From the NCBI GenBank assembly GCA_021161995.1, contig JAGGZO010000073.1:1-24000 (forward strand): a DNA stretch of 24,000 nucleotides, in the 5' to 3' direction. The position numbers and the translations under genes were made by a program. The notes beneath the pieces were generated by a model that did not search any database, was not told the origin of the DNA, and saw nothing but the letters and a program-made list of their open reading frames with translations. Within the stretch, counting starts at the first letter, position 1; each line of letters opens with the position of its first letter. Below are positions 7,191-23,123 of this stretch, in pieces. This stretch comes from Candidatus Aenigmatarchaeota archaeon. Lineage in GTDB: Archaea > Aenigmatarchaeota > Aenigmatarchaeia > CG10238-14 > SpSt-28.

Positions 7191-7877
7191 GTGTCTTGTA
7201 GAACAGATAAAGAATCAAAGGAAGTGGATTGCTACATAAAGAACTGGTTATCAGTAATTTTTATCTATAAAATCCTTCAAAAAGGCGATATAATAACAGC
7301 TAAAACCATTAGGAACGTCTTTGTGTGGAAAAATGGTAAAAAAGTTAAGGTTGGTAGGAAAGAGGGTATTGTGGACTTAAAAATAGAAAAGATTACTTTA
7401 GATTCTATGAAAAAAGCTATACGTGTTAAAGGTGTTATTGTAGACGGACCGGAAGATTTTGAGAGGGGATATCATAGCATAGATGTCAAGATTGGAGATA
7501 GGATAAAAATTAAGAAGAAGGAGTGGAGTAACAGAATAGAGAAACTTTCAAGATTGTTTTCTGATAGAAATATTACAACTAACTATTCTGAATATTTGAG
7601 CAAGTTTTTTGAGCATTTCAATAAGGATGATGGCTTAGTTGCTTATGGAGGCGATGTAAAAGAAGTTGTTGCCTATGGCATAGTAAAATTTCTGATTGTA
7701 CCGGATGACGTACTTTTTGATGAAAGCATCATAGAATTAGTTAGCGAAGCCCTATCAAAAGGCAGTAAAATCGTGCTTGTTGATGTTAATAGTGAAGAAG
7801 GTAGAAAATTCAAGAAAAATTTTGGTTTAGCTGCTCTCCTTAGATTTAGCTACAAGACTAGCTATATATCCAGCTAG
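7191..7877 (+). CDS. Pelota/Dom34-like mRNA surveillance protein, shortened; the central domain is apparently absent
   Basis: 228 aa with a GTG start, which is the first in-frame start after stop 7170-7172. The N-domain-like part reads QKGDIITAKTIR...IRVKGVIVDGPEDFERGYHSIDVKIGDRIKIKKKEW. The eRF1-domain-3-like C-terminus reads GLVAYGGDVKEVVAYGIVKFLIV...GSKIVLVDVNSEEGRKFKKNFGLAALLRF. Confidence 0.55.
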   Translation: MSCRTDKESKEVDCYIKNWLSVIFIYKILQKGDIITAKTIRNVFVWKNGKKVKVGRKEGIVDLKIEKITLDSMKKAIRVKGVIVDGPEDFERGYHSIDVKIGDRIKIKKKEWSNRIEKLSRLFSDRNITTNYSEYLSKFFEHFNKDDGLVAYGGDVKEVVAYGIVKFLIVPDDVLFDESIIELVSEALSKGSKIVLVDVNSEEGRKFKKNFGLAALLRFSYKTSYISS

Positions 7878-8024
7878 TATATTTCTTAGCTTTTTTGATC
7901 TTATTCTAAGTATTTGTTTTAAAGTCTCCTTGTTTTTGCTAAAGTCATCAGTAAACTTATCTCCATATTTTTCTACCAAATTCTTTGCCATTTTTTTGGT
8001 CATTAGGGTTCTTACTCTTCCCAT
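7827..8024 (-). CDS. rps17e: 30S ribosomal protein eS17 (S17e)
   Basis: MGRVRTLMTKKMAKNLVEKYGDKFTDDFSKNKE...SKKLRNILAGYI matches the eS17 signature (MGxVRT...FTxDFxxNK...LRNxIAGY). The track ORF begins at 8072, but AGGTGAT (SD) sits just before the tandem ATG ATG at 8027/8024, so I take the shorter start. Confidence 0.85.
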   Translation of the reverse strand: MGRVRTLMTKKMAKNLVEKYGDKFTDDFSKNKETLKQILRIRSKKLRNILAGYIASLVAKSKESS

Positions 8025-8114
8025 CATATCACCTAAAAATAATTTGGCATAAAAAATATATTGATAATCCAATAGTAACAGCTTTTAAAAGCATTTTGGC
8101 AAATATCATTTTTT

Positions 8115-9290
8115 ATGAACAATCTAATGATAACTAAAAGGAGAAAAGAAGAACCGCTAGTTGAGATAGTAGAAAGAAAAGGAATTGGACACCCAGATAC
8201 AATCTCAGATAACATAGTAGAGAAAATCTCAGTTAATCTAGCAAATCTTTATCTGAAAGAGGTAGGTCAGATATTACATTACAATATAGACAAAGCCTTT
8301 TTGATAGCTGGTGAATCACAAACAAAGTTTGGTGGTGGTAAACTAGTAAAGCCAATGAAATTCGTCATTGGGGATAGAGCTACTATGGTAGTTGGTGACA
8401 AAGAGATACCCGTTAATGAGTTAGTCGAAAAAACTGTTATCGATTGGTTTAAAGAAAACATGAGATTCGTAGATAAAGATCATGTTATAATTCAGAATGA
8501 AATAAAAAGAGGCTCACAATCTTTAACAACCATATTCAAAGGAGAGAAGCAAAAATTCATGCCTGCAAACGATACTAGTGCTTTAGTCGGTTTTGCACCT
8601 TTAACAAAGCTGGAAGATGCTGTGTACAAAATAGAGAGATTCATAAATTCTCCTGATTTTAAAAAGAGGCATCCAGAGAGTGGTGAGGATGTTAAGGTAA
8701 TGGGTCTTAGAATGAAAGACCATTATAGATTTACTATTGCAATAGCTTTCGTTGACAGGTTCATTGAAAATGAGACAAACTATTTCAGGAAGAAGGATGA
8801 AGTTTTTGAAGAAATCAAAAACTATGTGAACAACGATTTAGGAATAGATGCTGAAATACTCGTTAACACACTAGACACAAAAGGTTTAGGTGAAGATGGT
8901 TGTTATCTTACTGTTTTAGGTACTAGTGCCGATAGCGGAGATAGCGGCGAAGTTGGTAGAGGAAATAGGGCAAACGGTTTAATTTCATTGAATAGACCTG
9001 CCGGTAGTGAAGCAGCTGCTGGTAAAAACATGGTTAGTCATGTTGGTAAGATATACAATTTGTTAGCGTTCAAGATAGCAAGGGAAATTCATGCTGAAAC
9101 TGGTAAGGAAAACTATGTTTGGTTGCTTAGCCAAATAGGTAAACCGATAAATGAACCAGTTGCTGTTTCAGTTGAGGTAGTTGATCTAGAAGATGAAAGA
9201 CCTATGATAGAAGAGGTTGTTGCCAGAAATTTCGAGAAATTGGATGAGTTCATAAGTGATTTGATAAAAGGTAAGTATACCGTAGCCTAA
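8115..9290 (+). CDS. mat: Archaeal-type S-adenosylmethionine synthetase (MAT)
   Basis: 391 aa. [13 protein letters not shown], the [17 protein letters not shown] loop and the overall length are typical of the archaeal AdoMet synthase family rather than bacterial MetK. Confidence 0.9.
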
Positions 9291-9350
9291 ACTCTTTATT
9301 TTTTGTTTATTTATTCGACTATTTCTTATCTGATTAGTATAAGAAAGTAG

Positions 9351-10062
9351 TGGGGCGGGTGGGATTTGAACCCACGACCTACCGGTCTTCAGCTTCGGCT
9401 GGGAAGAGACCTAATATACTCTTTGCTATTTTATATTTATAACTATTTGAAAATCCTATAGTATTCATCCATTTCTTGAGATTTTCTCTTCCATATAAAG
9501 CCAGTTTAAAACTGGCTGTATTAGATTTTTTACTAAAGCTTTTCCTTACTTTACCAGTTCTAAATCCTAGTTTTATTAAAATGTCTCTTATTTGATCGAG
9601 AAGCTTTCTACTAGAACTTGTAAATTCTAGTGTTGGATAATTTTTTACTCCTTTTTTGTCTGAAGTGAATATAGATCCATCTGTATCCATTATGCCTCTT
9701 ATTACTTGTTTAGCTATCTCAATATCCTCGAGTGCAACCTTTGGTAATGCGACTTTCAAATGTTTGCCAAAACCTATTGGTATTCCAGTCGATGAAATCA
9801 TTTGAAAGAAATGTTTTGATGTTATTCTTAATCTTATTGCATTTTCCCTCTTTCTAACTTTGACAAATACACCAAACTGTTTTTCTATGTTTTCCTTTAG
9901 ATATTTAAAATATTCTTCATCTTTTTCTTGGTGACCTGTTAGTTCCACTCTATAATGAGAATTTTTCGAGTATAGATTACCGTCTCCTATTATAGCCCCA
10001 ACAAGTTCCCAGAAGAATGGTCTCTTCCCATCGGCCGCTCTCCCGGACTGAGCCACCGCCCC
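9351..10062 (-). tRNA. tRNA-Phe(GAA) gene with a 638-nt intron between positions 30 and 31
   Basis: The 5' exon is 10062..10032: GGGGCGG TG GCTC AGTCCGGGA GAGC G GCCG. The 3' exon is 9393..9351: G CTGAAGA CCGGT AGGTC GTGGG TTCAAAT CCCAC CCGCCCC A. Joined, they give a perfect 74-nt cloverleaf with a 7-bp acceptor stem, all stems paired and anticodon loop CUGAAGA. Confidence 0.85.
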
Positions 10063-10083
10063 ACTAATTGTTATTTTTAGCAT
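9379..10083 (-). CDS. Double-motif LAGLIDADG homing endonuclease, intron-encoded; the true start codon is unresolved
   Basis: The ORF is 234 aa. Motif 1 is WELVGAIIGDGNL and motif 2, about 100 aa later, is IRGIMDTDGSIF, the spacing of monomeric I-DmoI-like enzymes. The ORF as drawn starts 21 nt upstream of the tRNA, reads through the 5' exon, and ends at a TAG inside the 3' exon. The biologically used start is unclear. Confidence 0.75.
   Translation of the reverse strand: MLKITISGAVAQSGRAADGKRPFFWELVGAIIGDGNLYSKNSHYRVELTGHQEKDEEYFKYLKENIEKQFGVFVKVRKRENAIRLRITSKHFFQMISSTGIPIGFGKHLKVALPKVALEDIEIAKQVIRGIMDTDGSIFTSDKKGVKNYPTLEFTSSSRKLLDQIRDILIKLGFRTGKVRKSFSKKSNTASFKLALYGRENLKKWMNTIGFSNSYKYKIAKSILGLFPAEAEDR
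9394..10031 (-). mobile_element. Archaeal bulge-helix-bulge (BHB) intron carrying a LAGLIDADG homing endonuclease gene
   Basis: Hand-folded BHB. A 4-bp helix pairs CGGC (10037..10034) with GCCG (9399..9396). It is flanked by 3-nt bulges CG|A (10033..10031) and AA|G (9395..9393). It is closed by a perfect 12-bp helix, TGGGAAGAGACC (10030..10019) with GGTCTCTTCCCA (9411..9400). Cleavage after the second bulge nucleotide gives exactly the exon ends needed for the tRNA-Phe cloverleaf. Confidence 0.8.
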
Positions 10084-10102
10084 TTAATCATTTATAAAGT
10101 TT

Positions 10103-11209
10103 TCATGGTAGGAAATCCTCTTCTTTCAACTTCTGAGGTAAATACTTCTCTGACAAGAATTTCAATCCCTTTGATGCCAATGCCTCGATTTCGGCTTTTC
10201 TCTTCGTTTTCAGGAACTTCTTTATTTCTTTTTGCCATTTTGGATGCTTGAACCATTCATAGTTCATTAATTCCTTAGCTCTTTTTAGGTCAAACTCTTT
10301 TGCTTTGATCGTCCAGTTTTGTAGCTTATATCTTTCTATATCAGTCATCGATACACCAATAAATTTAGCCTCAGGCGTACCAAGTCTGTCGGAAACGTGG
10401 GCCAAGTTAATTGAACCATATTTGATTACTGAATATATGTACCAACCGTATGGGTCAGCATCAGTCAACACATAAACAGGTAGACCTAACTCTTGATTCA
10501 ACCTTTGTATAAATCTTCTCGCACCTCTTGCTGCCTGGCCTTTTGTACCAATTAGTATAGCATTCCATTTCTTCCAGAACATATGTGCATTAAGTCTTTC
10601 CCATGCAGCGTTCTTCTCTATGACTATAACCTTGTCAGCATTTACTTTTTTGAACTCTATGTGTTCTACGTTACTTGGAATTGCCCAGCCACCTAAACCT
10701 AATTTTGAAAGATTTATCTCATGTCCGAACAGCGAATCTTTTATGACAATGTTACCAACAACATTACCTTTTGGATCAGCACCTATATTCAATCTCTCCC
10801 TTATAACATCAAGTATAAGTTCAACATCCACTAAAGCAGCATCTGACTCTCTCTGTTCATCGAATGTGTTTTCTTTAGAATTTGGTAAAGTTCTTTTGAG
10901 ACTGTAAAACATTTCTCTCAGGCTGACTCTTTCATCCTCTTCTAGCAATGTCTTACAAAATGATAACACGAGCAAAGTTTGCATGAATCTTTTGGAGTGA
11001 GCAACATTTAGGAAATATCTCTTGGCAATCTTTTCACCGAGTATCAACTTCTTGTTTTCTTTATCAAAAACGATGTTTGAAAGTCTTCTTATAGGAATTT
11101 CTAAATATATACCTTCACCCTTTTCTATTTTCTTGAGTAGTTTCAATCCAATTTCTTTAATCTTCTTTAATGAAACTTCTTCATATTTTATTTTCTTTTT
11201 TGCACTCAT
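10103..11209 (-). CDS. top6A: DNA topoisomerase VI subunit A (Spo11 homologue)
   Basis: 368 aa. It has the Toprim region VYVLTDADPYGWYIYSVIKYGS and an N-terminal winged-helix region. Its start overlaps the top6B stop by 4 bp. Confidence 0.9.
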   Translation of the reverse strand: MSAKKKIKYEEVSLKKIKEIGLKLLKKIEKGEGIYLEIPIRRLSNIVFDKENKKLILGEKIAKRYFLNVAHSKRFMQTLLVLSFCKTLLEEDERVSLREMFYSLKRTLPNSKENTFDEQRESDAALVDVELILDVIRERLNIGADPKGNVVGNIVIKDSLFGHEINLSKLGLGGWAIPSNVEHIEFKKVNADKVIVIEKNAAWERLNAHMFWKKWNAILIGTKGQAARGARRFIQRLNQELGLPVYVLTDADPYGWYIYSVIKYGSINLAHVSDRLGTPEAKFIGVSMTDIERYKLQNWTIKAKEFDLKRAKELMNYEWFKHPKWQKEIKKFLKTKRKAEIEALASKGLKFLSEKYLPQKLKEEDFLP

Positions 11210-12834
11210 TCTTCCTCACCTTTTGTTTTATTGTTAATTTCAACAAATTTTTTGTTCAATAAATTCTCAATCATTTTTTTGATTTGATCTTCTTTTTTGT
11301 CAGTTATTTTTGCAATGCTGCTAACAACTTCAGGTAAATATCTTTCGAATATTTGTCTTTTTCGTTTCTTTTCAATTTCCCTCCTCTTTTTGTTCATGAA
11401 TACTTTCAAATTTCTTCCAAGTTCTTGCAATGCAAGCTTTATTTCTTTTAATATCTCAGGATATTGCGCTATAGCTTCTTTTCCTTCACTCTTATATGGA
11501 ATCCAAACAGATAGAAAATCTACAAGAATTATCATTGGCGCTTGCGGTATAGAACCTTCGGATTGTGAAACACCGTAAGACCTCCAGTTTGTTTCTGATA
11601 CAGCTTTTGTGATTACACAATCTGATTGATTATACAGCAAAGGTGTGTGGTTTGCTAATCTTATAAGTTTGGCTGAACTTACTCCCAATTCATCACCATA
11701 AACAATGGCAGCTTCTACTTGGAATGGATAACCTCTGTATACCGTCGGCTTTCTTATCACAGCATGAAAGAATTCAGCGTTTGGGTATTCCCTTTTCAAT
11801 GCTTCTATGAGGTAATTTGGGTTTATTGGAGAAAGACAATCCATTGGAGGAGATAGTAGTTTAACCATTGTCATAGCTTTATGTAGTTTTTCTATTTGAT
11901 TGTGTACAAGCTTATGTGGATCAGTTTTAGGATCTATTTTTGCTAGCTTGCAAATTTTCAGTGCACTATCTCTTCCAACCCTAGAAAATTCATTCATCAA
12001 AAAGTTTAGAACCGTTGTAGATTTTGTCATTTTCAGCATTCTTTTTAATCTACCGAGCTCCACACCATATGGATGTGGTTTTATTTCTCTTGGTAGCTTT
12101 GGTAGTTTTGGCATTACTCTTTTGAATTTTAACACTCCATTTGGACCATCAAAAGTTATAGTAACATAAGGATTTGCTATGGAAATCAGTTTTAGATATT
12201 CTGGGATCGATTGCCTTTTTTCTATGTATCTACCTTCAACAATTACCTCTATCTTTGTTCCATGCCACTTTTTAGGATTTTCTCTGACTTCATGCTTTAG
12301 TATTATTGGTTCGTTTTTTAGGACATCTATCATCAACTCAAAATAATGTATTTTATCGTTTCCGGTACTCGTTTCTACTTTAGCTGATTTACCTGTTGTG
12401 AGTTGCGCATACAATATGGCACCTTTTGCACCTATGCCTTGCGTGCCTATACTTTGTCTTAATCTATAGAACTTAGAACCCACAAGGAATTTAGCAAATG
12501 CGATCGGAACTTTTTTTGGATGAATACCAGGACCATTGTCTTCTACTTTAACTCTGTATCTATTTTCGCTAACTTGTTTCACCAAAACTTTTATCGTCGG
12601 TAGTATTCTAGCTTCTAAGCATGCGTCTATAGAGTTATCTACAAATTCTTTCACTACTGTAAACAAGGACTTAACAGGATTTTCATAGCCTAATAAGTGT
12701 CTATTCTTTTCAAAGAATTCAGCAATACTAACTTCCCTAATTTTTTCTGCTAATTCTTCGCCAGTTAAAATCCTTCCTTCTATGTTGTCCATACCTAAAC
12801 CATTCTCATTTATATTAATAAAATTTACATCCAA
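11206..12834 (-). CDS. top6B: DNA topoisomerase VI subunit B (GHKL ATPase)
   Basis: 542 aa. Bergerat-fold motifs are EFVDNSIDA, DNGPGI and GTQGIGAKGA. It lies directly upstream of top6A. Confidence 0.9.
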   Translation of the reverse strand: MDVNFININENGLGMDNIEGRILTGEELAEKIREVSIAEFFEKNRHLLGYENPVKSLFTVVKEFVDNSIDACLEARILPTIKVLVKQVSENRYRVKVEDNGPGIHPKKVPIAFAKFLVGSKFYRLRQSIGTQGIGAKGAILYAQLTTGKSAKVETSTGNDKIHYFELMIDVLKNEPIILKHEVRENPKKWHGTKIEVIVEGRYIEKRQSIPEYLKLISIANPYVTITFDGPNGVLKFKRVMPKLPKLPREIKPHPYGVELGRLKRMLKMTKSTTVLNFLMNEFSRVGRDSALKICKLAKIDPKTDPHKLVHNQIEKLHKAMTMVKLLSPPMDCLSPINPNYLIEALKREYPNAEFFHAVIRKPTVYRGYPFQVEAAIVYGDELGVSSAKLIRLANHTPLLYNQSDCVITKAVSETNWRSYGVSQSEGSIPQAPMIILVDFLSVWIPYKSEGKEAIAQYPEILKEIKLALQELGRNLKVFMNKKRREIEKKRKRQIFERYLPEVVSSIAKITDKKEDQIKKMIENLLNKKFVEINNKTKGEEE

Positions 12835-13361
12835 AACATAGCTCTTTTAGATTTTTCTATTTCTAGAAATCTCATTACACTTGTGTGCATCCTACCTTCT
12901 AGTAACATTTCAACAGCCCTTCTTGCTATTTGAACATCTTCTAGTTTACCTATTATTGAAATTGTTTTACCGTATACAGAGATTTTTGTGTGTGTCATGT
13001 CTTCAATCATTTTCTTTGACTTACCTTTTTCACCTATTACTCTACCTTTTAGCTCTATCTGTCTATTTCTGGAGTTTGCATAATCTTTGACGTTTATTAT
13101 ATCAAGAACATAATCGTCATCTAGCAATAATAGTGCAGTCTCCGGATCAAAGCCCCTACCAAAAGCAACAATTATTTGTTCTGCTTTCATCAACTTCAGG
13201 CCATCATCACCTTCTATTGATATGCCATCTTCTTTACTTATACCGATTTTTACATTAAGCTCTTTTTGAATCTTTTCTATCATTTCTTTGTTTTTTTCTA
13301 ATAACCTAAGCCTCTCTTCTGGTATCTTCACGTATTTTTTAAACATCATACTTATCACCAA
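12825..13361 (-). CDS. KH-domain RNA-binding protein (archaeal Dim2/Pno1-like)
   Basis: 178 aa. The GxxG-type KH signature VIGEKGKSKKMIE is present. It occupies the conserved archaeal position downstream of aIF1A and the Rio kinase. Confidence 0.7.
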   Translation of the reverse strand: MVISMMFKKYVKIPEERLRLLEKNKEMIEKIQKELNVKIGISKEDGISIEGDDGLKLMKAEQIIVAFGRGFDPETALLLLDDDYVLDIINVKDYANSRNRQIELKGRVIGEKGKSKKMIEDMTHTKISVYGKTISIIGKLEDVQIARRAVEMLLEGRMHTSVMRFLEIEKSKRAMFWM

Positions 13362-14061
13362 CTATTTCTTCGTACAAATTCTCCAGAGGTATTATATCTG
13401 TAAATTTCTTGAAAAAACTGTTTAAATTTTTTAAGTCTCTCTTGAGAAAGTCCAGGAATAATGGGTGGTTGTCTCGAACACCTTGGCTAAAATCTATGAA
13501 AAACGGTTTTTTATCATGATAGAGTATATTAAACGCGCTTAGATCACCATGCACAAGTCTATTTTCGAATAATTTTTTGACTTGTTCAATAGACGTTTTG
13601 TATAATTTATCTGGATTCTCTAAATCATCCACTTCTGATAATCTCAGTGCTGGCTTACCATCTTTACCGATAAACTCCATTATTAGTATGTTGTTAAAGA
13701 ATGCTATCGGTTTCGGTGAGAATATTTTTGCTTTTTCATATGCAATCTTCATGTTCCTAAATTCTCTTTTACACCAATTGAATATTACTGATTTTCGATC
13801 TTTTTTTGTACTTAAGAATCTTGGGTCGGCTATCAAGTATTTCCACATACTTTTAAAATCACAATGGAAAATTCTGTATATCTTAATGGCCAGCCAATTT
13901 CCCTCTTTGTCTTTAGCAGAGAACACAACACTTTCTTTACCTTCTTTTACTATAGATTCAAGTATATCAAAATATTGTTTATTAGAGAGTTTCCATAAAC
14001 CAAAAATAGTTATTTCATCGAGTACTTTTCTATAAACCTTAAAATCTTCTTTTTTCATCAA
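13339..14061 (-). CDS. rio1: RIO-type serine/threonine protein kinase
   Basis: 240 aa. Motifs are the KEGKESVVF nucleotide loop, AIKIYR, the catalytic LVHGDLSAFNILY and FIDFSQ. Confidence 0.85.
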   Translation of the reverse strand: MMKKEDFKVYRKVLDEITIFGLWKLSNKQYFDILESIVKEGKESVVFSAKDKEGNWLAIKIYRIFHCDFKSMWKYLIADPRFLSTKKDRKSVIFNWCKREFRNMKIAYEKAKIFSPKPIAFFNNILIMEFIGKDGKPALRLSEVDDLENPDKLYKTSIEQVKKLFENRLVHGDLSAFNILYHDKKPFFIDFSQGVRDNHPLFLDFLKRDLKNLNSFFKKFTDIIPLENLYEEIVGDKYDV

Positions 14062-15277: not shown

Positions 15278-15391
15278 GCCCCGGTAGCTCAATGGAAGAG
15301 CGCCCGGCTTGTATGCCGCCTCCTGGTATATTGATACTAAGATGAGAGCAAGGATACCGGGAGGTTGTGGGTTCAACTCCCACCCGGGGCT
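15278..15391 (+). tRNA. tRNA-Thr(UGU) with an intron of about 42 nt at the canonical 37/38 site (about 15314..15355)
   Basis: Acceptor GCCCCGG/CCGGGGC. D-arm GCTC/GAGC. Anticodon stem CCCGG/CCGGG with 5' loop CTTGTA. T-arm GTGGG-TTCAACT-CCCAC. Exon CTTG pairs with intron CAAG to form the central BHB helix. The exact 3' junction is uncertain by 1 nt. Confidence 0.85.
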
Positions 15392-15426: not shown

Positions 15427-15540
15427 GGGGCCGTAATCTAGCCAGGCAGGATGGCGGGCTCCAGAAACGGGTTTTTGGAGCGTGGATAAAAGATGACAGG
15501 GAGAAACCCGTTAACCGGGGTTCAAATCCCCGCGGCCCCA
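15427..15540 (+). tRNA. tRNA-Trp(CCA) with a 41-nt intron at 37/38 (15465..15505)
   Basis: Acceptor GGGGCCG/CGGCCCC. Anticodon stem GCGGG/CCCGT with loop CTCCAG|...|A. T-arm CGGGG-TTCAAAT-CCCCG. In the BHB, CTCC pairs with GGAG, flanked by bulges AG|A and AA|A. Confidence 0.85.
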
Positions 15541-16019: not shown

Positions 16020-16520
16020 ATGGTATTGCAGCCAAACGAGCTGATATTTTCCATCGTAGTCCCTTTTTTGATATATTATGTATTATTGTTTGGTATTCTT
16101 GAACGAATACGTCTTTTCAACAAGCGTACAAACAGTTTACTTAGTCTGCTAATAGGGATTCTTGGGACATATTCGCTTTATAAGATAGGTTTATCCGGTA
16201 TTCTACCCTCTCTGGCTGCGATATTCATAGTATCAATATTCGGAGCTATTTTCTTTTTTGGGGCAGGTAAAAAATCGCTAGAGTATGCTAATAAGGCAGT
16301 ATCTCAACAAAATTCTCGAGATAAAGATAATTTAAAGCTAGAAATATTGTCTATTTGTTCTAAAATACTCAATGCTATGCAAGAAGGTGATACGAATAAA
16401 GTTACTGAATTGAAACAAGAATTTTTGTCTAAGATGAACTATTTGAGAACAATAGTCTCTCAGCAGGAATACGAAGAATTCAAAAAATCTCTGCCTCAAG
16501 AATGTCAGACTTTAATTTGA
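16020..16520 (+). CDS. Membrane protein, paralog family member P1 (TM N-half plus coiled-coil C-half)
   Basis: 166 aa. The N-terminus VVPFLIYYVLLFGILERIRLFNKRTNSLLSLLIGILG shares the motif described in the findings. The C-terminal 70 aa are charged and helical. Confidence 0.6.
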   Translation: MVLQPNELIFSIVVPFLIYYVLLFGILERIRLFNKRTNSLLSLLIGILGTYSLYKIGLSGILPSLAAIFIVSIFGAIFFFGAGKKSLEYANKAVSQQNSRDKDNLKLEILSICSKILNAMQEGDTNKVTELKQEFLSKMNYLRTIVSQQEYEEFKKSLPQECQTLI

Positions 16521-16536
16521 AGCGTGAAAATAAATT

Positions 16537-16908
16537 ATGGAGTTTATCGATGTCATAATGTTCGGTTTTAAACCATTCTTGATATCAACAATAATAATTT
16601 ACAGCCTCTTGATCAAAACCAAAATTTTTGGTGGTGATAAAGCAGGCAAGAAAGTAAGTGCGATAATAGCTGTAACTATCTCTATGTATATATTCCTTGG
16701 TTTCTTGGAGAATGCTAGCATGATACTGAAAACGTTTTTGGTATTTCCATTACTAATACTGCTTATATTTGTTGGTTTTGTTGCATACAAAACTCTTGTT
16801 GAGATGAAAATTCATGAACCAAAGAAGAATAGAGAGAAAATTCTACTTTTTGTTGTCGTTTTGTTACTTACGATCTTTCTTTCGTTATACATCTTTACTA
16901 AGCTATAA
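16537..16908 (+). CDS. Membrane protein, paralog family member P2
   Basis: 123 aa. FKPFLISTIIIYSLLIKTKIFGGDKAGKKVSAIIAVTISMYIF aligns with P4 and P5. It has 3-4 TM helices. Confidence 0.6.
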   Translation: MEFIDVIMFGFKPFLISTIIIYSLLIKTKIFGGDKAGKKVSAIIAVTISMYIFLGFLENASMILKTFLVFPLLILLIFVGFVAYKTLVEMKIHEPKKNREKILLFVVVLLLTIFLSLYIFTKL

Positions 16909-16934
16909 ATATAAGCTTAGACATTTAATTTATT

Positions 16935-17840
16935 ATGAGAGAGGAAATTCTAAAGTTCTATTTACTCGCATTACTACTGGCAATTCCACTTACAAACGCT
17001 GCTAGTGTAGTTCAACTGGGGATGTCCGATACAATCATGAGTGTTATAGTTATTTTGGGCTTTGTTGGTATACTATTGTATCTAGGAGGAGTAATAAAGT
17101 TTTCCGGTGCTGGTTCATGGAAAAACAAAATTCCAACTAGCTTCATTGCATTTGCAATATTTTTGATAATAGTATTCGTTGTTCCAATGTTCGTTAAATA
17201 TCCATCATACATAAGAGTCGACCCAACCTGGCAAAGTTCACCTCTACCGTCTACTGTTGGAAAAATATTTATAATGCTTGGTTTACCAGAGGACTGGATG
17301 TATGTTCCAGCAATAATATATCTGTTTATTATTCCATTTGCAGCTATCTATACTTTGGTGTGGGCGTTTCTCAATGATCTAGGCGTCTTCAAAAATGTTA
17401 GTAACAAGAGGATAAACATAGTATTAGCATTTTTAATTGCTTTTTCGACAATACCACTAGGATACTTCACCAAACTTGTTCATGTGTTATTTGCATTCCT
17501 TGGTGGGTATTCAGTTGCAATGTTTGCTGCTATGATGATAGTCGGCATATTTGGTAAGGGATATGGATATGCTGTAAATGCTTATGCTAAAACAGCAATT
17601 GCAAAACAGTCAGCTAAGATAAAGGTGTTGCACCAGAACGTGAAGAATTTGTTAGCCGAAGTACAAAAAGCAAGAGATGATGGCGCAGCAAGAGCAGTCC
17701 TAATGACACCAGCAGCACAGGCCATGTTAAGAGAATATGGTAACATGACTGGTAGACCGATGGAGATAGAAGCCATACTAGCGAACTTAAATGGTATGAG
17801 TAAAAGTCAAATAATAGATGCATTGAAAAAACTCGTCTAA
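16935..17840 (+). CDS. Polytopic membrane protein (signal peptide, about 6-7 TM) with an embedded copy of the paralog motif (P3) and a helical C-terminal tail
   Basis: 301 aa. The signal-like N-terminus is LLALLLAIPLTNAAS. The internal motif is FIIPFAAIYTLVWAFLNDLGVFKNVSNKRINIVLAFLIAFST. Its stop codon overlaps the convergent ATPase stop codon (ctaa at 17837-17840). Confidence 0.6.
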   Translation: MREEILKFYLLALLLAIPLTNAASVVQLGMSDTIMSVIVILGFVGILLYLGGVIKFSGAGSWKNKIPTSFIAFAIFLIIVFVVPMFVKYPSYIRVDPTWQSSPLPSTVGKIFIMLGLPEDWMYVPAIIYLFIIPFAAIYTLVWAFLNDLGVFKNVSNKRINIVLAFLIAFSTIPLGYFTKLVHVLFAFLGGYSVAMFAAMMIVGIFGKGYGYAVNAYAKTAIAKQSAKIKVLHQNVKNLLAEVQKARDDGAARAVLMTPAAQAMLREYGNMTGRPMEIEAILANLNGMSKSQIIDALKKLV

Positions 17841-20080
17841 CCCTTCCCTATTCTTTTTCTAAACCATCCATCCCATCTTTTAAATATTTCTTTTGAATCT
17901 AGTGTACCAGTTTCATTTTTAACTTCTTCACTGAAATAATGAAACATGTCATTAGCTTCTACAACATAATCCGCTTCCAAAATTTCCGGCGTGTCATACT
18001 TTTCAGAGTAATCGACCATCGCTTGTTTTATTTTAGCTCTTAGCATGATATTGTCCCAAACAAGATCCCAATTACCATAGAATTCCCTCACCCTCTTTGC
18101 TATTTCGTTTATTACAAAACTTTCTCCATGTATCAAAGTGTCTGCTGGCTGTAGTTCATCTTTTTTCGAATTATAAACTAACAACGGAACAAATGCATTT
18201 TCTTTCAAAGGATCTTTGCTCCAATGTTTTCTTATCTCTGTAACTTCTACAACTCTTTTGAATCTTCTTAGACCATCTGCTGTTTTTAAGTTTGCTGTTA
18301 AAACTATTAGATCAGCTGCTTTGAAACTTGTTGTTGGTACACCTAAATCATTAACAACTCTATCAAAAACGCCATATGCTGATTCACCATGGATAGTTCC
18401 AGCTACCGTATGTGCTAACGCACCTATACGCATAGCCTCGAATAAAGCAAGAGCTTCTTTTGATCTAATTTCTCCTATTATCAAAACAGAGTCTCCAAGC
18501 CTTAGTGCTGTTCTTAACGCTTCTTCTGCCGGTAATTCTGATTCAACTCTTGTTATCACACTTCTAGCTTTCAATCTTGTTATGTTATACCCAAGTTTTC
18601 TGAAATAAGGAACGGGTATTTCAAGTGTATCTTCGATGACAACTATTCTGTATTTTTTCATTATCTCTAGCATCATTGCTGTTAATAAAGAAGTTTTACC
18701 TGAGCCTCTACCACCAGCAATCAATAAAGATCTACCACCATCTACAATAAAACTGAGTAACCCAGCAAATAATGGATTTATCATTTTGTACTTTATGAAC
18801 AATGGCAGTGTCCATGGTTTATCTCTATGTCTTCTGAACGCAAAACCCAAGCCTTCTGGTGATAAACCTTTTGTGATTGCAGCAACTCTTGCTCTACCAC
18901 CTGGAACTATTAGTTCTGTGTCTAATACGGGATTAGCTTCGTCCAAAGGCCTGCCAGAGTATAACCTGAATTTTGTCGCCCAGCCTTCAGCATCCTCTTT
19001 ACTAGGATAAAGATTAGTTTCACATTCTTCAAAATCAGCATGCTGGATAAATATTGGGGTTGAACCAACAGGAGAGTTTATGTAAATATCGGTTATTTTT
19101 TCGTCTGCTAATAATAACTCGAGTAACCCAAAACCAGCTGTGTATCTGACTAAAATGTTTGTTAATTGTTCTATTTTATCTCCTGTTAAGTATATTCCAG
19201 ATTCGCTAGCTATCCTTTCTATTGTTTCCTTTCCGAGTTTGTAGAAAAAATCTCTTGATGCTTCTAAGTCCAAATTCTCTGTTTCTGGTGGTCTGTTTTC
19301 TGCAATAAAAACTCTTGCTCTTTGCAGTATCATATTTTCTTCTTCATTCAAGAAGAATTCTGGTGCTTTGAGATAGTAAACCAGTCTAATCTTTCCAGGT
19401 ACTTTGTAAATCTCAACCTCTATCCCTTTTTGAATCTCATACCTTTCTATTCTTATAGACCCTCTTGGCGGTAAAACAAAGAACTTTGAATCCATGAAAA
19501 CAGGTCTTATAATAGGTCTGAAAATTTTTCTGTATGATGTTCTATCTCCAGGTTTTATCAAATTTATTTCATTGACGAACTCTTGTATTATTTTAGATTT
19601 CTTCAACTCAGATATAATTTTCTCTACATGGTTTTGTAAAAGACTTTTTGTAAGACTATCTTTCTTTTTATCGAGTTCTATTTGCAAAAGAATTCTCATT
19701 CTTTTTGCTTTCTTGAATGCATATATAGGATCCCTTCTTATCAACTTCAATATTTCGGAAAACTTTTCTAGTTTTTGTGATATACTGGCATGATTTCTTA
19801 ATTCTATATCGTTAACTGGCTGATCAACTCTAAACCTTCTTGTTAACCTTTTGTGTATATCTGCGATTTCATATAACAACTTAACTTGATCATAATCGTA
19901 TTCATAGTCTCTACCCTTAGTTATTACGATCGACTCTACAGTTTTAATTTGAGATAATCTGTCTATTATGAACTCCATCATATCCGCAGAATCTTCGATA
20001 GTAAAGAAAGTGACATCCATACCTGAGCAATTTACCAATAATTTATTCTCTGAGATCTCATACGGGAAATTGAAAACCAT
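17837..20080 (-). CDS. Type II/IV secretion-system-family ATPase (FlaI/PilB/VirB11/GspE-like) with a long N-terminal extension
   Basis: 747 aa. It has Walker A LLIAGGRGSGKTSLL, Asp box IVVIEDTLEI, Walker B DSVLIIGEIRSKEA and His box GTIHGES. More than 300 aa precede the ATPase core. Confidence 0.85.
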   Translation of the reverse strand: MVFNFPYEISENKLLVNCSGMDVTFFTIEDSADMMEFIIDRLSQIKTVESIVITKGRDYEYDYDQVKLLYEIADIHKRLTRRFRVDQPVNDIELRNHASISQKLEKFSEILKLIRRDPIYAFKKAKRMRILLQIELDKKKDSLTKSLLQNHVEKIISELKKSKIIQEFVNEINLIKPGDRTSYRKIFRPIIRPVFMDSKFFVLPPRGSIRIERYEIQKGIEVEIYKVPGKIRLVYYLKAPEFFLNEEENMILQRARVFIAENRPPETENLDLEASRDFFYKLGKETIERIASESGIYLTGDKIEQLTNILVRYTAGFGLLELLLADEKITDIYINSPVGSTPIFIQHADFEECETNLYPSKEDAEGWATKFRLYSGRPLDEANPVLDTELIVPGGRARVAAITKGLSPEGLGFAFRRHRDKPWTLPLFIKYKMINPLFAGLLSFIVDGGRSLLIAGGRGSGKTSLLTAMMLEIMKKYRIVVIEDTLEIPVPYFRKLGYNITRLKARSVITRVESELPAEEALRTALRLGDSVLIIGEIRSKEALALFEAMRIGALAHTVAGTIHGESAYGVFDRVVNDLGVPTTSFKAADLIVLTANLKTADGLRRFKRVVEVTEIRKHWSKDPLKENAFVPLLVYNSKKDELQPADTLIHGESFVINEIAKRVREFYGNWDLVWDNIMLRAKIKQAMVDYSEKYDTPEILEADYVVEANDMFHYFSEEVKNETGTLDSKEIFKRWDGWFRKRIGKG

Positions 20081-20117
20081 ATAATTTAATATTATTGATT
20101 AACATTAAATTATATTT
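20081..20117. promoter_or_regulatory. A 37-bp divergent intergenic region with a 9-bp perfect inverted repeat (putative crossed TATA elements)
   Basis: TAATTTAAT (20082-20090) and ATTAAATTA (20104-20112) are separated by 13 bp. Each arm lies about 24-36 nt upstream of the start codon of the gene it faces across the repeat, which is consistent with leaderless transcripts. Confidence 0.35.
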
Positions 20118-20525
20118 ATGGCGAAACAACAGAGGAGTTCCTCAGATTTATCTAGAATACAACTCTCTATGAATGATTTGTTGAATAGAATAAGAGTTTT
20201 GGAACAGCTAACTGAAAAAATGGATATTTTGATTTCTTCTTTAGAAAAAGAAGTTCGCGATACAGAAAAAAGATTATTGAACAGAATAAACGAAATAGAC
20301 GAATCTATCGAAAAAATGGATTCTCGCTTAAGACAGGTTGAAGTTTCTCTGGATAAACTCAAAAGCGAGGTTGACAAAAAGGCATCTAAGATGGAAGTTA
20401 AAGAACTGAGCTCATTGTTAGAGTTATTCAGTCCCATAAAATCAGTTTTTGTGACCAAGGAGCAAGTCAAAATGATTGTAGAAGAAATTTTGGAAAAGAA
20501 GAAAAAGGTTGAAACGAATATATAA
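20118..20525 (+). CDS. Coiled-coil protein (hypothetical)
   Basis: 135 aa. Heptad-like charged repeats run throughout (LLNRIRVLEQLTEKMDILISSLEKEVRDTEKRLLNRINEIDESIEKMDSRLRQVEVSLDKLKSEV). The gene is divergent from the ATPase. The antisense ORF 20105..20470 is rejected. Confidence 0.65.
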   Translation: MAKQQRSSSDLSRIQLSMNDLLNRIRVLEQLTEKMDILISSLEKEVRDTEKRLLNRINEIDESIEKMDSRLRQVEVSLDKLKSEVDKKASKMEVKELSSLLELFSPIKSVFVTKEQVKMIVEEILEKKKKVETNI

Positions 20526-20562
20526 TTACCAAAGAAATTAAAGATTATTGGTAAGTGGTAGC

Positions 20563-21264
20563 ATGTTGTTTAGTAAGAAAAAATCCACATCTGTAGGAAA
20601 AGGGTTTGTACCAACAGATAAAGTAAAGGAGCTTTTTTCCAAAGGTTTCTCAGAGGTTGAAATAATAGATATACTAAGGAAAGAGGGTTTTTCTCCAGAA
20701 GAAGTCGACAAAGCATTGACGGAAGCTCTGAAATCAGAGATAAACAAAGTTAAGTTACCAACAAAGAAGGATATAGAAGAATCTGTTAAAGAAGAAGCAA
20801 AACCTTCTCAACCTCTTACTCAACAACCTGATCAGCAGACTCAGCCAGTTCAGCAAGCCACTCAGCAAATCCAACAACCTCAATCGGTCCAACCCGTCAA
20901 TCCAGTACAGCAAGAAGTTGCTGAAGAAGAATACGCATATGTTACACCAGAAGAGTATGTTGAATATCTTATAAGAGAAAAGATGCAAGATTTGAATACA
21001 AGATTAATGGAATTTAACATGAAATATAAGGAGCTAGAAAACAGAATAGCTGATTTGACAGAGAGATTAGATAATTTCTGGAAATCAAGAGAAGATGAAT
21101 ATCAATCAATACTCAGAAGGATAGAAACTTTAAAAGATTCTCTGGATGAAATGAACACAAGAATTGCTACACTAGAAAGAGCATTCAAAGAAACATTTCC
21201 ATCATTGATAGAAGGGATAAAGCTTCTGAGTGAAGTAGTTCAAAAGCTAAAAAAGGAAGCTTAG
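20563..21264 (+). CDS. Hypothetical protein: small N-terminal helical domain, Q/P-rich linker, C-terminal coiled coil
   Basis: The track starts it at TTG 20548; the first ATG is at 20563 (MLFSKKKSTS...). The N-terminal domain reads KVKELFSKGFSEVEIIDILRKEGFSPEEVDKALTEAL. The linker reads QPLTQQPDQQTQPVQQATQQIQQPQSVQPVNPVQQ. The coiled coil reads MEFNMKYKELENRIADLTERLDNF...IATLERAFKE. Confidence 0.65.
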   Translation: MLFSKKKSTSVGKGFVPTDKVKELFSKGFSEVEIIDILRKEGFSPEEVDKALTEALKSEINKVKLPTKKDIEESVKEEAKPSQPLTQQPDQQTQPVQQATQQIQQPQSVQPVNPVQQEVAEEEYAYVTPEEYVEYLIREKMQDLNTRLMEFNMKYKELENRIADLTERLDNFWKSREDEYQSILRRIETLKDSLDEMNTRIATLERAFKETFPSLIEGIKLLSEVVQKLKKEA

Positions 21265-21275
21265 AATAATTATTT

Positions 21276-21848
21276 ATGAATGTTTTTGAAAACGTAGCGC
21301 AGCAACTCGCTGAAGCGGGATTTTTTACATATTTTTTACCTTTCATAATTTTCACTGCATTCGCTTATGCATTGCTTAAAAGATCGAAAGTATTTGGGGA
21401 TTCTGTTGTATTGAATGGTGTTCTGGCGTTTTCGCTTGGTTTACTTGTTTTTGGGTCACCATTTCTTTTGGGGATCGATTTATCGAGAGCTCTTTCATTG
21501 TTTTTTGTTCAAGCATTTTCTTTTTTGTTAGTATTCTTCATAGGTATACTGATTTCAGCATTATTCTATCCAGACTTGCTTAAAGTACTGGAGGAAACAA
21601 TGAAAAGAAGGACAACAATGTATGCAATGATAGCACTGGGTTTAGCTTTATTCATAATAAGCGGACTTTTTTCCATAACTTATGAACCAGGCAACCAATC
21701 TGTTTCTACTGAAAATGGTGGAGGTTCTGGTTATATAAGTGAACAGAAAAGTAATTTAAGAGGTTTGTATATACTTACCACTGTTTTAATAATTTTTATT
21801 GTGATAATATTAATCGCTGGGTATGTTGCTAAAGGGGGTGGTGCATAA
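21276..21848 (+). CDS. Membrane protein, paralog family member P4
   Basis: 190 aa. AEAGFFTYFLPFIIFTAFAYALLKRSKVFGDSVVLNGVLAFSLGLLVF is followed by further TM helices and a G-rich loop, ENGGGSGY. Confidence 0.65.
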   Translation: MNVFENVAQQLAEAGFFTYFLPFIIFTAFAYALLKRSKVFGDSVVLNGVLAFSLGLLVFGSPFLLGIDLSRALSLFFVQAFSFLLVFFIGILISALFYPDLLKVLEETMKRRTTMYAMIALGLALFIISGLFSITYEPGNQSVSTENGGGSGYISEQKSNLRGLYILTTVLIIFIVIILIAGYVAKGGGA

Positions 21849-22412
21849 GTGTCAGATCCATTCACAATAATGGTTCAAAGATTAGACGAACTTGGATTTT
21901 TTACCTTTCTTTTACCGTTCATTCTTTCAACTACTATAATCTATGCGTTACTAAGAAAATCGAAGATTTTTGGTGATCCAAAAGAGAATGTTACTGTTAA
22001 TGCAACTATTGCTATAACAATTTCTATGATGGTGCTAGCTGCACCTATACTAGCCGGTATTGATGTTAAGCAATCGTTAGCAAAGTTTTCAGTTTACTCA
22101 TTAATAATGTTTGTAATAATAATGTCTTCGTTGTTTGCGCTTGCTTTCATTGCACCAGAAGGTGATATCAGTAAACTTCTCAGCTCCGAAATAGGTGGTG
22201 GGAATAAAAAAGTAAAATTATTGAGTATAGTTGCTCTCTTGATTGGTATTTTTGTTATAGCTGTTTTATTTTCTAGCGGTATAATGTCTGTTTTATTTGG
22301 CGATAATCTTGGTAAAGGTTTATCCGGTTTGGATGAAACTATAAAGTCTGTGATAACTTTCATTGTTATAATTGGTTTTATTATCGGAGTTATTGTTTTT
22401 GTTAGTAAATAA
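21849..22412 (+). CDS. Membrane protein, paralog family member P5
   Basis: 187 aa. The GTG start immediately follows the P4 stop, with GGGGGTGGTG upstream (SD-like). LDELGFFTFLLPFILSTTIIYALLRKSKIFGDPKENVTVNATIAITISMMVL is closely similar to P4 and P2. Confidence 0.65.
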   Translation: MSDPFTIMVQRLDELGFFTFLLPFILSTTIIYALLRKSKIFGDPKENVTVNATIAITISMMVLAAPILAGIDVKQSLAKFSVYSLIMFVIIMSSLFALAFIAPEGDISKLLSSEIGGGNKKVKLLSIVALLIGIFVIAVLFSSGIMSVLFGDNLGKGLSGLDETIKSVITFIVIIGFIIGVIVFVSK

Positions 22413-22415: not shown

Positions 22416-23123
22416 TCATAGTATGATTACTGATGGTAGTTCAAAATCTTCTTTGAGAGCATTTTCTATACTACCTTTGAAAATCTCAGACGAGCCCCCA
22501 ACATCAGAAAAAACGATTATCTGATCTAGCCTAGATACAACTTTTTCATTGAATTTTTCTTCCAAATTCAATAAAATTTTTAAGGCGTCACTCACAGAGA
22601 GGAATTCATCATTTTCTATATCGATGTCTAATAGACAAAGAGTTTTTAATTTCCTTTTTCTGTTTTCTTTTATTGCTTCGTAAACAGATTTAGGCAATTT
22701 TCCCATTGTTCTTTTTGGTAATGGTATTGTTATTGTTTGTCCGAGCTGTGTAATTCTTATACCAGTTTCACATATTGCTGAAAATATCGATGATGCATGA
22801 ATGACTTTTGTTTCAATCCCAATCCCCTTTGCTTCTTCCAATATTGCGTAATGTGATGTTGCAACCAGTGGGTCTCCAGGAACTAATATAGCAACATTGA
22901 TAATTTTTGCTTCTTCTAATATTTTTTGGATTTCATTTTCCAAATCTTTTCTTTTAACTTTTATTATTTCTTTACCGGTTAGTTCTTCTAGTTTTTTAAT
23001 ATCACCTTTCCATAAGTTCGTGTACACTTCCGCATAAACTTTGCCCGATTTTTTTATTTGTTCTAATCCTTTTAGAGAGATATCCATTTCGTCATGTAAA
23101 CCTAAGCCAACAAGGACTAACAT
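22416..23123 (-). CDS. dphB: Diphthine synthase
   Basis: 235 aa. The N-terminus MLVLVGLGLHDEMDISLKGLEQIKKSGKVYAEVYT and the PGDPLVATSH motif belong to the tetrapyrrole-methylase-fold Dph5/DphB family. Confidence 0.85.
   Translation of the reverse strand: MLVLVGLGLHDEMDISLKGLEQIKKSGKVYAEVYTNLWKGDIKKLEELTGKEIIKVKRKDLENEIQKILEEAKIINVAILVPGDPLVATSHYAILEEAKGIGIETKVIHASSIFSAICETGIRITQLGQTITIPLPKRTMGKLPKSVYEAIKENRKRKLKTLCLLDIDIENDEFLSVSDALKILLNLEEKFNEKVVSRLDQIIVFSDVGGSSEIFKGSIENALKEDFELPSVIIL

Follow-up and report, generated by a model that had tools for sequence, protein, structure and literature searches.

The locus described here raises the question of whether an ATPase of the secretion superfamily, encoded among small membrane proteins and coiled-coil proteins, drives a reduced or novel membrane machine, as the original prediction proposed, or belongs to a type IV filament system. 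The window analysed is a 24-kb stretch of DNA from an Aenigmatarchaeota archaeon, and the locus occupies its positions 16020-22412. All eight predicted ORFs are present, with coordinates and strands as predicted. Three genes (A, B and C) run on the plus strand towards the ATPase gene on the minus strand, from which four plus-strand genes (E, F, G and H) diverge across an AT-rich spacer of 37 nt (20081-20117). The operon-like spacing is also confirmed: same-strand neighbours are separated by 16, 26, 22, 11 and 0 nt, the zero gap lying between the stop of G and the start of H, and the convergent C and ATPase genes overlap in their stop codons (TAA at 17838-17840 for C, TAG at 17837-17839 on the minus strand for the ATPase). 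This arrangement is far beyond chance, since all eight genes recur in the same order in a relative (ATPase identity 81%) and the core recurs across several DPANN phyla. The synteny check called for by the prediction thus revealed a strongly conserved neighbourhood.

The ATPase (747 aa; 17837-20080, minus strand) is of the hexameric type and matches the T2SSE family PF00437 above the Pfam cut-off, with an E-value of 1e-18. The Walker A motif GGRGSGKTS (aa 456-464; 18689-18715), the Asp box, the Walker B-like motif LIIGEIRS (aa 533-540) and the His box GTIHGES (aa 561-567; the last two within 18380-18484) are all intact. Across 23 orthologs, G456, G457, R458, S460, G461, K462 and S464 of Walker A, L533, I534, G536, E537, R539 and S540 of Walker B, and G561, T562, I563, H564, E566 and S567 of the His box are invariant, and G565 is nearly so. 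Judged by these motifs, the protein is an intact secretion-superfamily NTPase of the FlaI/GspE/CpaF type, in line with the predicted FlaI/PilB/VirB11 family. The core spans residues ~208-690 and is flanked by a conserved N-terminal extension of ~207 aa and a C-terminal one of ~55 aa. The best NCBIfam match is the FlaI model, which covers residues 214-691 and reaches 142 bits where the cut-off is 550; the TadA-family model TIGR03819 matches with an E-value of 1e-37, at 130 bits against a cut-off of 373. Among solved structures, the nearest is Archaeoglobus fulgidus GspE (2OAP, E-value of 1e-37, residues 208-643), followed by CpaF (8RKD, 9E24) and then FlaI. Relatives occur in at least 562 GTDB species-level genomes, from which we kept 80 loci anchored on the ATPase, matching it at 48-59% identity over essentially the full length. 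Full-length orthologs, assigned by source name to Aenigmat-, Nanohalo-, Nano- and Woesearchaeota, are 50-60% identical.

The five small membrane proteins were predicted to be paralogs, and sequence comparison bears this out: A, B, C, G and H are by similarity true members of one unannotated family, here termed M. BLAST connects G with H (9e-19), B with H (4e-8), A with C (1e-6) and B with G (0.004), and C aligns to the M profile with an hhalign probability of 91% (E-value of 1e-6). Iterated HMMs seeded separately from each of the five recovered sets of similar size, between 129 and 148 ORFs spread over 50-52 loci, with a union of 148 ORFs; the HMM seeded from A found 146 in 52 loci. The whole family comprises 2,481 cluster representatives at 50% identity (E<=1e-3). 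G (190 aa; 21276-21848, plus strand) and H (187 aa; 21849-22412, plus strand) are type 1 members with five transmembrane (TM) helices. An AlphaFold2 model of H built from 139 sequences (pLDDT 84.4) starts with an amphipathic helix, which is followed by five long helices, and counting K+R along the type 1 alignment puts the C-terminus and loops 1 and 3 on the inside. H is thus predicted to cross the membrane five times with its N-terminus outside and its C-terminus inside. The signal-like hydrophobic N-termini of the members P0137-P0142, which precede the core together with about 40 further residues, fit an outside N-terminus. A (166 aa; 16020-16520, plus strand), whose type 2 assignment was read from an alignment and whose topology is inferred from the type 1 counts, has a three-TM core and a C-terminal coiled-coil tail predicted to be cytoplasmic. 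B (123 aa; 16537-16908, plus strand) is a short form, and a close relative encodes a gene of 123 aa at the same position. C (301 aa; 16935-17840, plus strand) has an N-terminal signal-like segment, extra TM helices, an M core at ~128-211 and a C-terminal helical tail.

M has no Pfam match, no PDB or BFVD fold match, no similarity to T2SSF and no relative of known function detectable by profile and fold searches. The original prediction had named two outcomes that would make this an ordinary archaellum or pilus operon, and both came out negative. C is not a FlaJ/TadC platform, as it lacks a Pfam T2SSF match and aligns to the platform profile with an hhalign probability of 0.7%; the small membrane proteins match neither known pilins nor the archaellum accessory proteins FlaC/D/E, F and G in Pfam, NCBIfam and profile searches.

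E (135 aa; 20118-20525, plus strand) and F (238 aa; 20548-21264, plus strand) contain no hydrophobic or TM segment, signal peptide or class III signal. The E profile and the coiled coil of F match only coiled-coil structures in the PDB, and the two coiled coils align with each other at an hhalign probability of 94%. E carries a conserved C-terminal NPIxSxFVT motif. F begins with a conserved domain of ~45 aa (GKGxxP..GFSExEIIDxLRxEG(F/Y)SPxEIDxAL), predicted to form a small helical bundle, whose profile matches designed helical miniproteins; a Q/P-rich low-complexity linker follows, and the C-terminal coiled coil ends in LEKAFKExLPxLIESVR. E and F are therefore probably cytoplasmic coiled-coil proteins, as the prediction had them. 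Hamm et al. 2024 suggested another reading, in which such proteins are extracellular attachment fibres resembling reovirus sigma-1 and exported to bind the host. Our profiles do reproduce the published similarity to sigma-1 (6GAO; 5e-7 for F, as its best PDB match, and 6e-6 for E). However, GCN4 fusions, designed coiled coils, keratin and spike HR1 score similarly, indicating that the sigma-1 signal is that of a generic coiled coil. Since both proteins also lack any export signal or TM segment, and the small helical domain and Q/P-rich linker of F are usual in cytoplasmic adaptors, we consider the fibre reading very improbable.

What the ATPase works with is suggested by its relatives. In most orthologous loci it is directly followed by a diverged T2SSF (TadC/FlaJ-like) platform of 650-730 aa, in at least 45 of the 64 loci whose sequence reaches far enough downstream. 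This platform is a single large protein in which two T2SSF-like halves are predicted; 40 of 51 match PF00482 (best E-value 4e-9), and the strong divergence of the platform accounts for the many members that fall below the Pfam threshold. Prepilin-like (class-III-like) N-termini are found in 116/257 ORFs downstream of the platform (45%) versus 17/662 elsewhere (2.6%). On the other side, genes for both coiled-coil proteins and for one to eight M proteins lie upstream of the ATPase in the relatives and diverge from it, giving the order M (one to several copies), F and E, then the divergent ATPase and platform. The same order is seen in an independent, platform-anchored metagenome set, where the ATPase gene immediately precedes the platform in 36 of 44 loci as counted from gene maps. 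These results do not support the proposal of a machine outside type IV filament systems.

The window nevertheless departs from the common order. Neither the eight locus proteins nor eleven other ORFs scanned in the window match T2SSF, peptidase A24 or FlaH/KaiC, and the 24 kb hold no clear pilin operon. The predicted lack of these type IV filament parts in the window thus stands. One ORF outside the locus (6320-7153, minus strand) has a prepilin-like N-terminus. In a neighbor-joining tree, the window ATPase groups with those of L001/L063 and L005, all with the split arrangement. The window therefore belongs to a small derived Aenigmatarchaeota clade whose platform and pilin genes no longer lie next to the ATPase gene. 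No clade member examined (the window, L001/L063, L005 and L084-86) has a platform beside the ATPase. In the window and L084-86, the usual position of the platform is taken by three M genes, A, B and the ~300-aa C, all pointing towards the ATPase gene; L001/L063 and L005 have a single C-like M gene of ~300 aa there, in the same convergent orientation.

Such a clade could have lost its platform and pilins, leaving the ATPase, M and coiled-coil proteins as a reduced, pilus-independent machine for secretion, DNA or lipid transfer or host-contact membrane remodelling, with the enlarged C or M oligomers in place of the platform. The absence of an adjacent platform throughout the clade, the M genes in its position and the single prepilin-like ORF in 24 kb are all consistent with this. 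However, the window ATPase remains 57-59% identical to platform-linked orthologs, nothing points to relaxed or shifted constraint, and M bears no resemblance to T2SSF. Reciprocal splits exist as well, in other genomes: L162 has five M genes, F, a platform and pilin-like genes with no ATPase, and seven further platform loci of the metagenome set have no upstream ATPase, evidence that the two halves need not be neighbours in the genome. Stand-alone pilin or platform genes at a distance from the ATPase are common in archaeal type IV pili (Makarova et al. 2016, PMC4858521). We therefore regard such a reduced machine as unlikely.

A different concern is that E, F and M might form a separate envelope or membrane-organisation module that stays near the ATPase because the region is old and rarely rearranged. 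Some passive synteny does exist, as the housekeeping gene dph5 is kept near 24 of 82 loci in two phyla; five other window neighbours are found near 0-4 of 82. The orientation of M relative to F also varies by lineage, with M on either strand, so that co-transcription of M and F is not universal, and E, F and M carry no sequence feature that connects them with any known pilus protein. Yet no other neighbours on the non-platform side are linked as tightly as these three: 56/74 assessable loci have a divergent E no more than 1 kb from the ATPase gene and 40/52 have at least one M gene, far above the housekeeping genes. The linkage spans phyla with only about 50% identity between their ATPases, E shares the short divergent spacer with the ATPase gene, and L162 keeps F and M with the platform and pilins even where the ATPase is absent. 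An independent module is thus distinctly improbable.

The locus type itself is already known. Hamm et al. 2024 (Nat Commun, PMC11291902, Fig. 4) reported that cluster-2 DPANN archaea share conserved type IV pilus-like loci encoding CpaF, TadC and coiled-coil proteins, and detected the coiled-coil proteins in the proteome of Ca. Nanohaloarchaeum antarcticus. Our loci share with theirs the phyla (Aenigmarchaeota, Nanohaloarchaeota and others), the CpaF/FlaI-type ATPase with adjacent coiled-coil proteins, their sigma-1 similarity and, in most members, TadC beside the ATPase, and the nanohaloarchaeal versions were recovered directly (L069, L071, L053 and L080). The window differs in that its ATPase has no adjacent TadC or pilin genes. 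The main text and preprint of that study contain neither 'transmembrane' nor 'membrane protein', and no multi-copy polytopic membrane family.

Archaeal type IV pili are assembled by a PilB/GspE-like ATPase, TadC/PilC and class III pilins (Makarova, Koonin and Albers 2016, PMC4858521). The locus resembles them in the ATPase core fold family and catalytic motifs, and orthologous loci hold platform and prepilin-like genes in one operon-like block. Subclade 4F, with an ATPase that is found in nanoarchaea, is also reported to have a cytoplasmic coiled-coil accessory. Unlike these systems, the locus ATPase has both terminal extensions, and its relatives' platform is strongly diverged. No counterpart of E, F or M was found in the arCOG-based census of the same study, leaving aside arCOG07564 for E and F. 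From the bacterial Tad/Flp pilus, which shares the TadA-family match, the second-ranking CpaF structures and a T2SSF-type platform (in relatives), the locus differs in its below-cut-off TIGR03819 score, in the single large platform of its relatives instead of a TadB-TadC pair, and in that RcpA, TadZ and TadD-type partners were not detected in the window. The archaellum shares a FlaI-like ATPase and possibly a membrane-anchored coiled-coil scaffold: FlaX is reported to combine an N-terminal TM helix with a coiled coil in the cytoplasm that forms a ring around FlaI/FlaH (PMC5019145). However, the FlaI model scores below its cut-off, FlaH, FlaF/G, FlaC/D/E and archaellins were not detected among the locus proteins in Pfam and NCBIfam searches, and M proteins, with three to five TM helices, are unrelated in sequence. 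By this comparison, the resemblance to the archaellum is one of functional analogy only.

Together, our results suggest, with a probability of roughly 70%, that the locus encodes the motor ATPase and lineage-specific accessories of a type IV pilus-like machine of cluster-2 DPANN archaea. In the searched literature, this locus has not been connected by experiment with a filament in any DPANN archaeon. We propose the following model. The platform and pilins would be encoded elsewhere in the genome, beyond the 24 kb covered here, and act in trans. The ATPase hexamer would dock on the platform and drive the assembly of pilin-like subunits, some of which may be large adhesin-like proteins. From linkage, predicted topology and analogy, we infer that E, F and M may surround the ATPase with a membrane-anchored scaffold or ring, in which M would be the small polytopic membrane component, the type 2 members A and C would place their coiled-coil tails in the cytoplasm, and contact might be made through the conserved 207-aa N-terminal extension of the ATPase. 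Such a scaffold would be analogous, not homologous, to FlaX/ArlCDE of archaella or PilM/N/O of bacterial pili. The M family, with ~2,500 clusters, is found here as an undescribed part of this locus, and the surface filament assembled by the machine would serve contact with a host cell or surface.

The locus comprises eight ORFs, all of which were found where the original prediction had placed them. The plus-strand genes A (16020-16520), B (16537-16908) and C (16935-17840), which encode membrane proteins, converge on the minus-strand gene of a 747-aa ATPase (17837-20080), and the stop codons of C and the ATPase gene overlap. On the far side of the ATPase gene, across an AT-rich 37-nt spacer, lie the plus-strand genes for two coiled-coil proteins, E (20118-20525) and F (20548-21264), and for two further membrane proteins, G (21276-21848) and H (21849-22412), with gaps of 22, 11 and 0 nt between E and F, F and G, and G and H, respectively. 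The G+C content of 0.30-0.38 across most of the window is that of a low-G+C archaeal chromosome. Neighbouring genes encode topoisomerase VI A and B, Alba, NMD3, eIF1A, RIO kinase and diphthine synthase, and the SRP RNA and intron-containing tRNAs are also present. Two 114-nt Rfam tRNA matches (15278-15391 and 15427-15540, plus strand), which ARAGORN did not call, sit just upstream of Alba and the locus and are presumably intron-containing archaeal tRNAs. A free-standing LAGLIDADG endonuclease-like ORF (9379-10083, minus strand; PF14528, E 1.5e-13) lies directly downstream of the topoisomerase VI subunit A gene. Elsewhere, a 184-aa polytopic membrane protein (5203-5757, plus strand), without a Pfam match at E<=0.01 and without an obvious GxGD aspartyl-peptidase motif, is flanked by a membrane-anchored Lon-C-like protease and a YdjM-like protein.

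The ATPase matches the T2SSE family PF00437 with 67.7 bits (cut-off 24.9). Its best NCBIfam matches are FlaI (NF058587; 142 bits versus a cut-off of 550) and the TadA family (130 versus 373), and the VirB11 and TrbB models score 62-72 bits, below their cut-offs of 250-305. Since PF00437 is passed and the NCBIfam cut-offs are missed, the protein falls inside the superfamily but in no curated equivalog. Walker A, Asp box, Walker B and His box are all intact, and their core residues are invariant across 23 orthologs. The nearest solved structure is Archaeoglobus GspE (2OAP, E 1e-37, query residues 208-643), followed by CpaF and then FlaI. No known domain covers the ~207 N-terminal and ~55 C-terminal residues; within the clade both extensions are conserved, and residues invariant in the same 23 orthologs are spread along their whole length.

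Homologs that match over the full length, at 53-61% identity, are plentiful; their source names are Aenigmatarchaeota and, for some, Nanopusillaceae or 'Micrarchaeota'. When one genome per GTDB species was scanned, at least 562 genomes proved to encode an ATPase relative, among them the complete nanohaloarchaeal CP012986 and CP046106 as well as MAGs of Nano- and Woesearchaeota. Identity between Nanohaloarchaeota and Aenigmatarchaeota is ~50%, and the ATPase is among the best conserved non-housekeeping proteins over several DPANN phyla. About one in twelve orthologs is enlarged to 910-1290 aa and carries intein domains (PF14890; most also LAGLIDADG PF14528): P0032, P0042, P0056, P0066, P0077, P0079, P0084 and P0116, with loci L095, L108, L114, L126, L132 and L166 among the carriers. 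The inteins are in keeping with a highly conserved and probably important protein.

Gene maps of 83 related loci reveal a conserved order, in which one to eight genes of the membrane-protein family of A, B, C, G and H (here named the M family) are followed by F and E, and, divergently from E, by the ATPase gene and the gene of a polytopic protein of 650-730 aa. Where the flanking sequence is long enough to tell, this large protein is encoded directly downstream of the ATPase in at least 45 of 64, E diverges within 1 kb of the ATPase gene in 56 of 74, and at least one upstream M gene is present in 40 of 52 (mean 2.3). PF00482 is matched by 40 of 51 members of the large-protein family (best E 4e-9; single sequences E ~0.1), and the family profile has one informative PDB match, a weak one to GspF (E 0.6). 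The large protein belongs with the T2SSF platforms, as a diverged member of TadC/FlaJ-like kind. Of the 257 ORFs downstream of the platform, 116 have a prepilin-like N-terminus (M..(K/R)G and then a hydrophobic helix), compared with 17 of 662 ORFs in other positions; these N-termini were scored with our own heuristic for class III signals, not FlaFind. In a second independent sample, JGI metagenome loci anchored on the platform, the order is the same, with the ATPase directly upstream in 36 of the 44 mapped loci that have enough upstream sequence. The complete nanohaloarchaeal genomes CP012986 and CP046106 likewise have the order E-F-ATPase-TadC.

The ATPase is thus tightly linked, across phyla, to the platform, prepilin-like genes, E and F, and multiple copies of five-helix M proteins. 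As a control for synteny, dph5 is kept in 24 of 82 loci, and the figure for five other window neighbours is 0-4. It is improbable that E, F and M form an unrelated neighbouring module. The dph5 gene (22416-23123, minus strand, in the window) is no more than 10 kb away from the ATPase gene in those 24 loci, which come from both Aenigmatarchaeota and Nanohaloarchaeota; this is an unusually old conserved neighbourhood without an obvious functional link.

The profiles of E and F (44 and 43 orthologs, respectively) match coiled-coil structures only, reovirus sigma-1 (6GAO) being the first or nearly the first of the PDB matches, and the two coiled coils match each other with an hhalign probability of 94%. 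F begins with a conserved domain of ~45 residues, GFSExEIIDxLRxEG(F/Y)SPxEIDxAL, predicted to be a small helical bundle, and continues through a Q/P-rich linker to a conserved C-terminal LEKAFK..LPxLIESVR; the conserved C-terminal motif of E is NPIxSxFVT. The resemblance to sigma-1 raises the idea that these proteins are exported as fibres. However, the coiled-coil matches are generic, neither protein has a hydrophobic segment or any export signal, and we regard exported fibres as very improbable.

Loci of this kind have been described as T4P-like in cluster-2 DPANN archaea, namely Aenigmat-, Nanohalo-, Nano-, Woese- or Pacearchaeota, with a CpaF-type ATPase, TadC and one or two coiled-coil proteins whose profile matches are of the sigma-1 (6GAO) or nucleoporin kind; proteome data of Ca. 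Nanohaloarchaeum antarcticus include the coiled-coil proteins, and the function was left open (Hamm et al. 2024, PMC11291902). Our locus resembles them in that E and F adjoin a CpaF-like ATPase, and in its taxa, the ATPase orthologs being named Aenigmatarchaeota, Nanohaloarchaea and similar, whereas the TadC platform is missing from the window. Since taxa, gene content and the 6GAO match coincide, this type of locus is already on record. The main texts of the paper and its preprint contain neither 'transmembrane' nor 'membrane protein', nor the M family. The original prediction of a possibly novel machine outside the type IV filament systems finds no support, since in most relatives the orthologous ATPase gene adjoins a T2SSF platform gene and prepilin-like genes. 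The locus is a rearranged form of a known but uncharacterised DPANN pilus-like system, and we put at roughly 70% the probability that it represents the ATPase and accessory half of such a T4P-like system.

Of the components of type IV filament systems, the T2SSE ATPase with its four intact motifs is present, and a T2SSF platform is not encoded with it in the window. The archaellum differs in that the ATPase falls below the FlaI/ArlI equivalog level (NF058587) and that FlaH, FlaJ, FlaF/G, FlaC/D/E, FlaX and archaellins are unmatched among the window proteins; none of these partners appears in the Pfam tables of the orthologous loci. In contrast to conjugative or VirB-type T4SS, the ATPase is under the VirB11 cut-off, the locus has no VirB4, VirD4 or TrbL-like protein, and it sits in a chromosomal housekeeping context conserved across phyla. 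Subclade 4F of a previous classification includes a coiled-coil accessory protein, arCOG07564, and an ATPase also found in nanoarchaea 'without cognate pilins' (Makarova et al. 2016, PMC4858521). The secretion complex predicted by Makarova in 2015 (arCOG01314/arCOG02884) is unrelated to the locus.

In a neighbour-joining tree, the window ATPase clusters with those of loci L001/L063 and L005, and in all of these the platform is not adjacent; a ~300-aa M-family ORF converges on the ATPase gene instead. A relative whose ATPase is 81% identical keeps all eight genes, in unchanged order, in the interval from Alba to dph5. Since the platform-linked order is found in nearly all other ATPase branches, the split arrangement is derived. 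No T2SSF platform was found in the 24-kb window, no prepilin peptidase (A24, PibD/FlaK/EppA) among its scanned ORFs, and no class III signal peptide among the eight locus proteins. Prepilin peptidases are often encoded apart from pilus loci. The window does contain one prepilin-like ORF (6320-7153, minus strand), which encodes 277 residues with a CBM-like beta domain; its N-terminus reads MKG followed by QKTLDEFAFILLGSVIFIMVLAIYF, and the weak beta-sandwich match (PF14683, E 1e-5) is just under the cut-off. This product is possibly a pilin-like adhesin that serves the machine as a substrate.

One way to read these absences is that the window's clade has a truly reduced machine without a platform. 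A reciprocal split is found in L162 (Ga0065719_106588, 1-13818), where the order is dph5, five M genes, a 354-aa gene without known identity, F, the platform and about seven prepilin-like genes, and where the ATPase and E are missing between F and the platform. Seven more platform loci have no upstream ATPase, and, together with the reciprocal split, they indicate that the halves of the locus can be encoded apart. A truly reduced machine is therefore rather unlikely, and we favour an ATPase and accessory half whose platform and pilins would act in trans in the same genome. At another stand-alone platform gene (L107), a 1,422-aa ORF (1610-5878, plus strand) lies directly upstream. The clade ATPase profile does not recognise this ORF at E 1e-50, and its product may be another ATPase, an intein-laden one or something else.

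The M proteins are the undescribed element and the real point of interest of the locus. All-versus-all BLAST links G to H (9e-19), B to H (4e-8) and A to C (1e-6), HMMs iterated separately from the five proteins each recover 129-148 ORFs from 50-52 related loci (union 148), and C matches the M profile with an hhalign probability of 91%. On these grounds, A, B, C, G and H belong to one family. They share a core of an amphipathic N-terminal helix, TM1 with the motif GFFxF-LPF-x(8)-YGLLxKSKIFG, and two further TM helices, to which type 1 members (G and H) add two more TM helices and type 2 members (A and C) a coiled-coil tail; B is a short form. AlphaFold2 with 139 sequences predicts five long helices for H (pLDDT 84); this model replaced one from 25 sequences (pLDDT 68). 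The K+R content per loop over the alignment (3.3, 0.2, 2.6 and 0.6, with 2.4 at the C-terminus) points to an outside N-terminus and an inside C-terminus. Some members have a hydrophobic, signal-like N-terminus before the core, in agreement with this orientation. Since the core is shared, the type 2 tails would be cytoplasmic.

An exhaustive search of representatives gave 2,481 clusters (50% identity, E<=1e-3); it replaced a word-index search, which was saturated by hydrophobic words and returned 15 proteins. All members named in their sources are called 'hypothetical protein'. A Pfam scan of 139 members yielded scattered weak matches only (DUF2070 in 22, DUF350 in 11), which we treat as hydrophobic-composition noise. 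Three other identities were considered and rejected. C is not a hidden FlaJ/TadC, with no T2SSF match and an hhalign probability of 0.7% against the platform compared with the 91% against M, and the family as a whole is not a split or miniature T2SSF (1.7% against the platform). The near-invariant glycine before a hydrophobic helix and the multi-copy pattern suggested pilins; the five TM helices, the K+R-rich loops that place the N-terminus outside, and the signal-like N-terminus before the core in some members rule this out.

Together, these results suggest a model in which the ATPase hexamer, acting through the platform, would drive pilin-like subunits to assemble into a filament on the cell surface that is used for contact. 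In this model E, F and M may build a membrane-anchored scaffold around the motor, with the cytoplasmic type 2 tails and the ATPase's conserved N-terminal extension as likely contact points, in a role that would be analogous to that of FlaX/ArlCDE or PilMNO; we offer this specific role only tentatively. Similarly tentative is the idea that M, E and F and the ATPase extension constitute a new DPANN-specific scaffold or stator that would convert an ordinary pilus motor into a specialised host-contact organelle of these ultrasmall symbionts; in the window's clade, it might even work without a canonical platform.

DPANN archaea need physical contact with their host cells, and we know of no molecular apparatus for this contact. 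The locus is not an orphan novel machine; the composition of its module is now fixed as an ATPase, a diverged TadC, pilin-like genes, two coiled-coil proteins and one to eight copies of an unnamed five-TM protein. Numbering about 2,500 clusters, the M family represents a concrete and testable candidate component.
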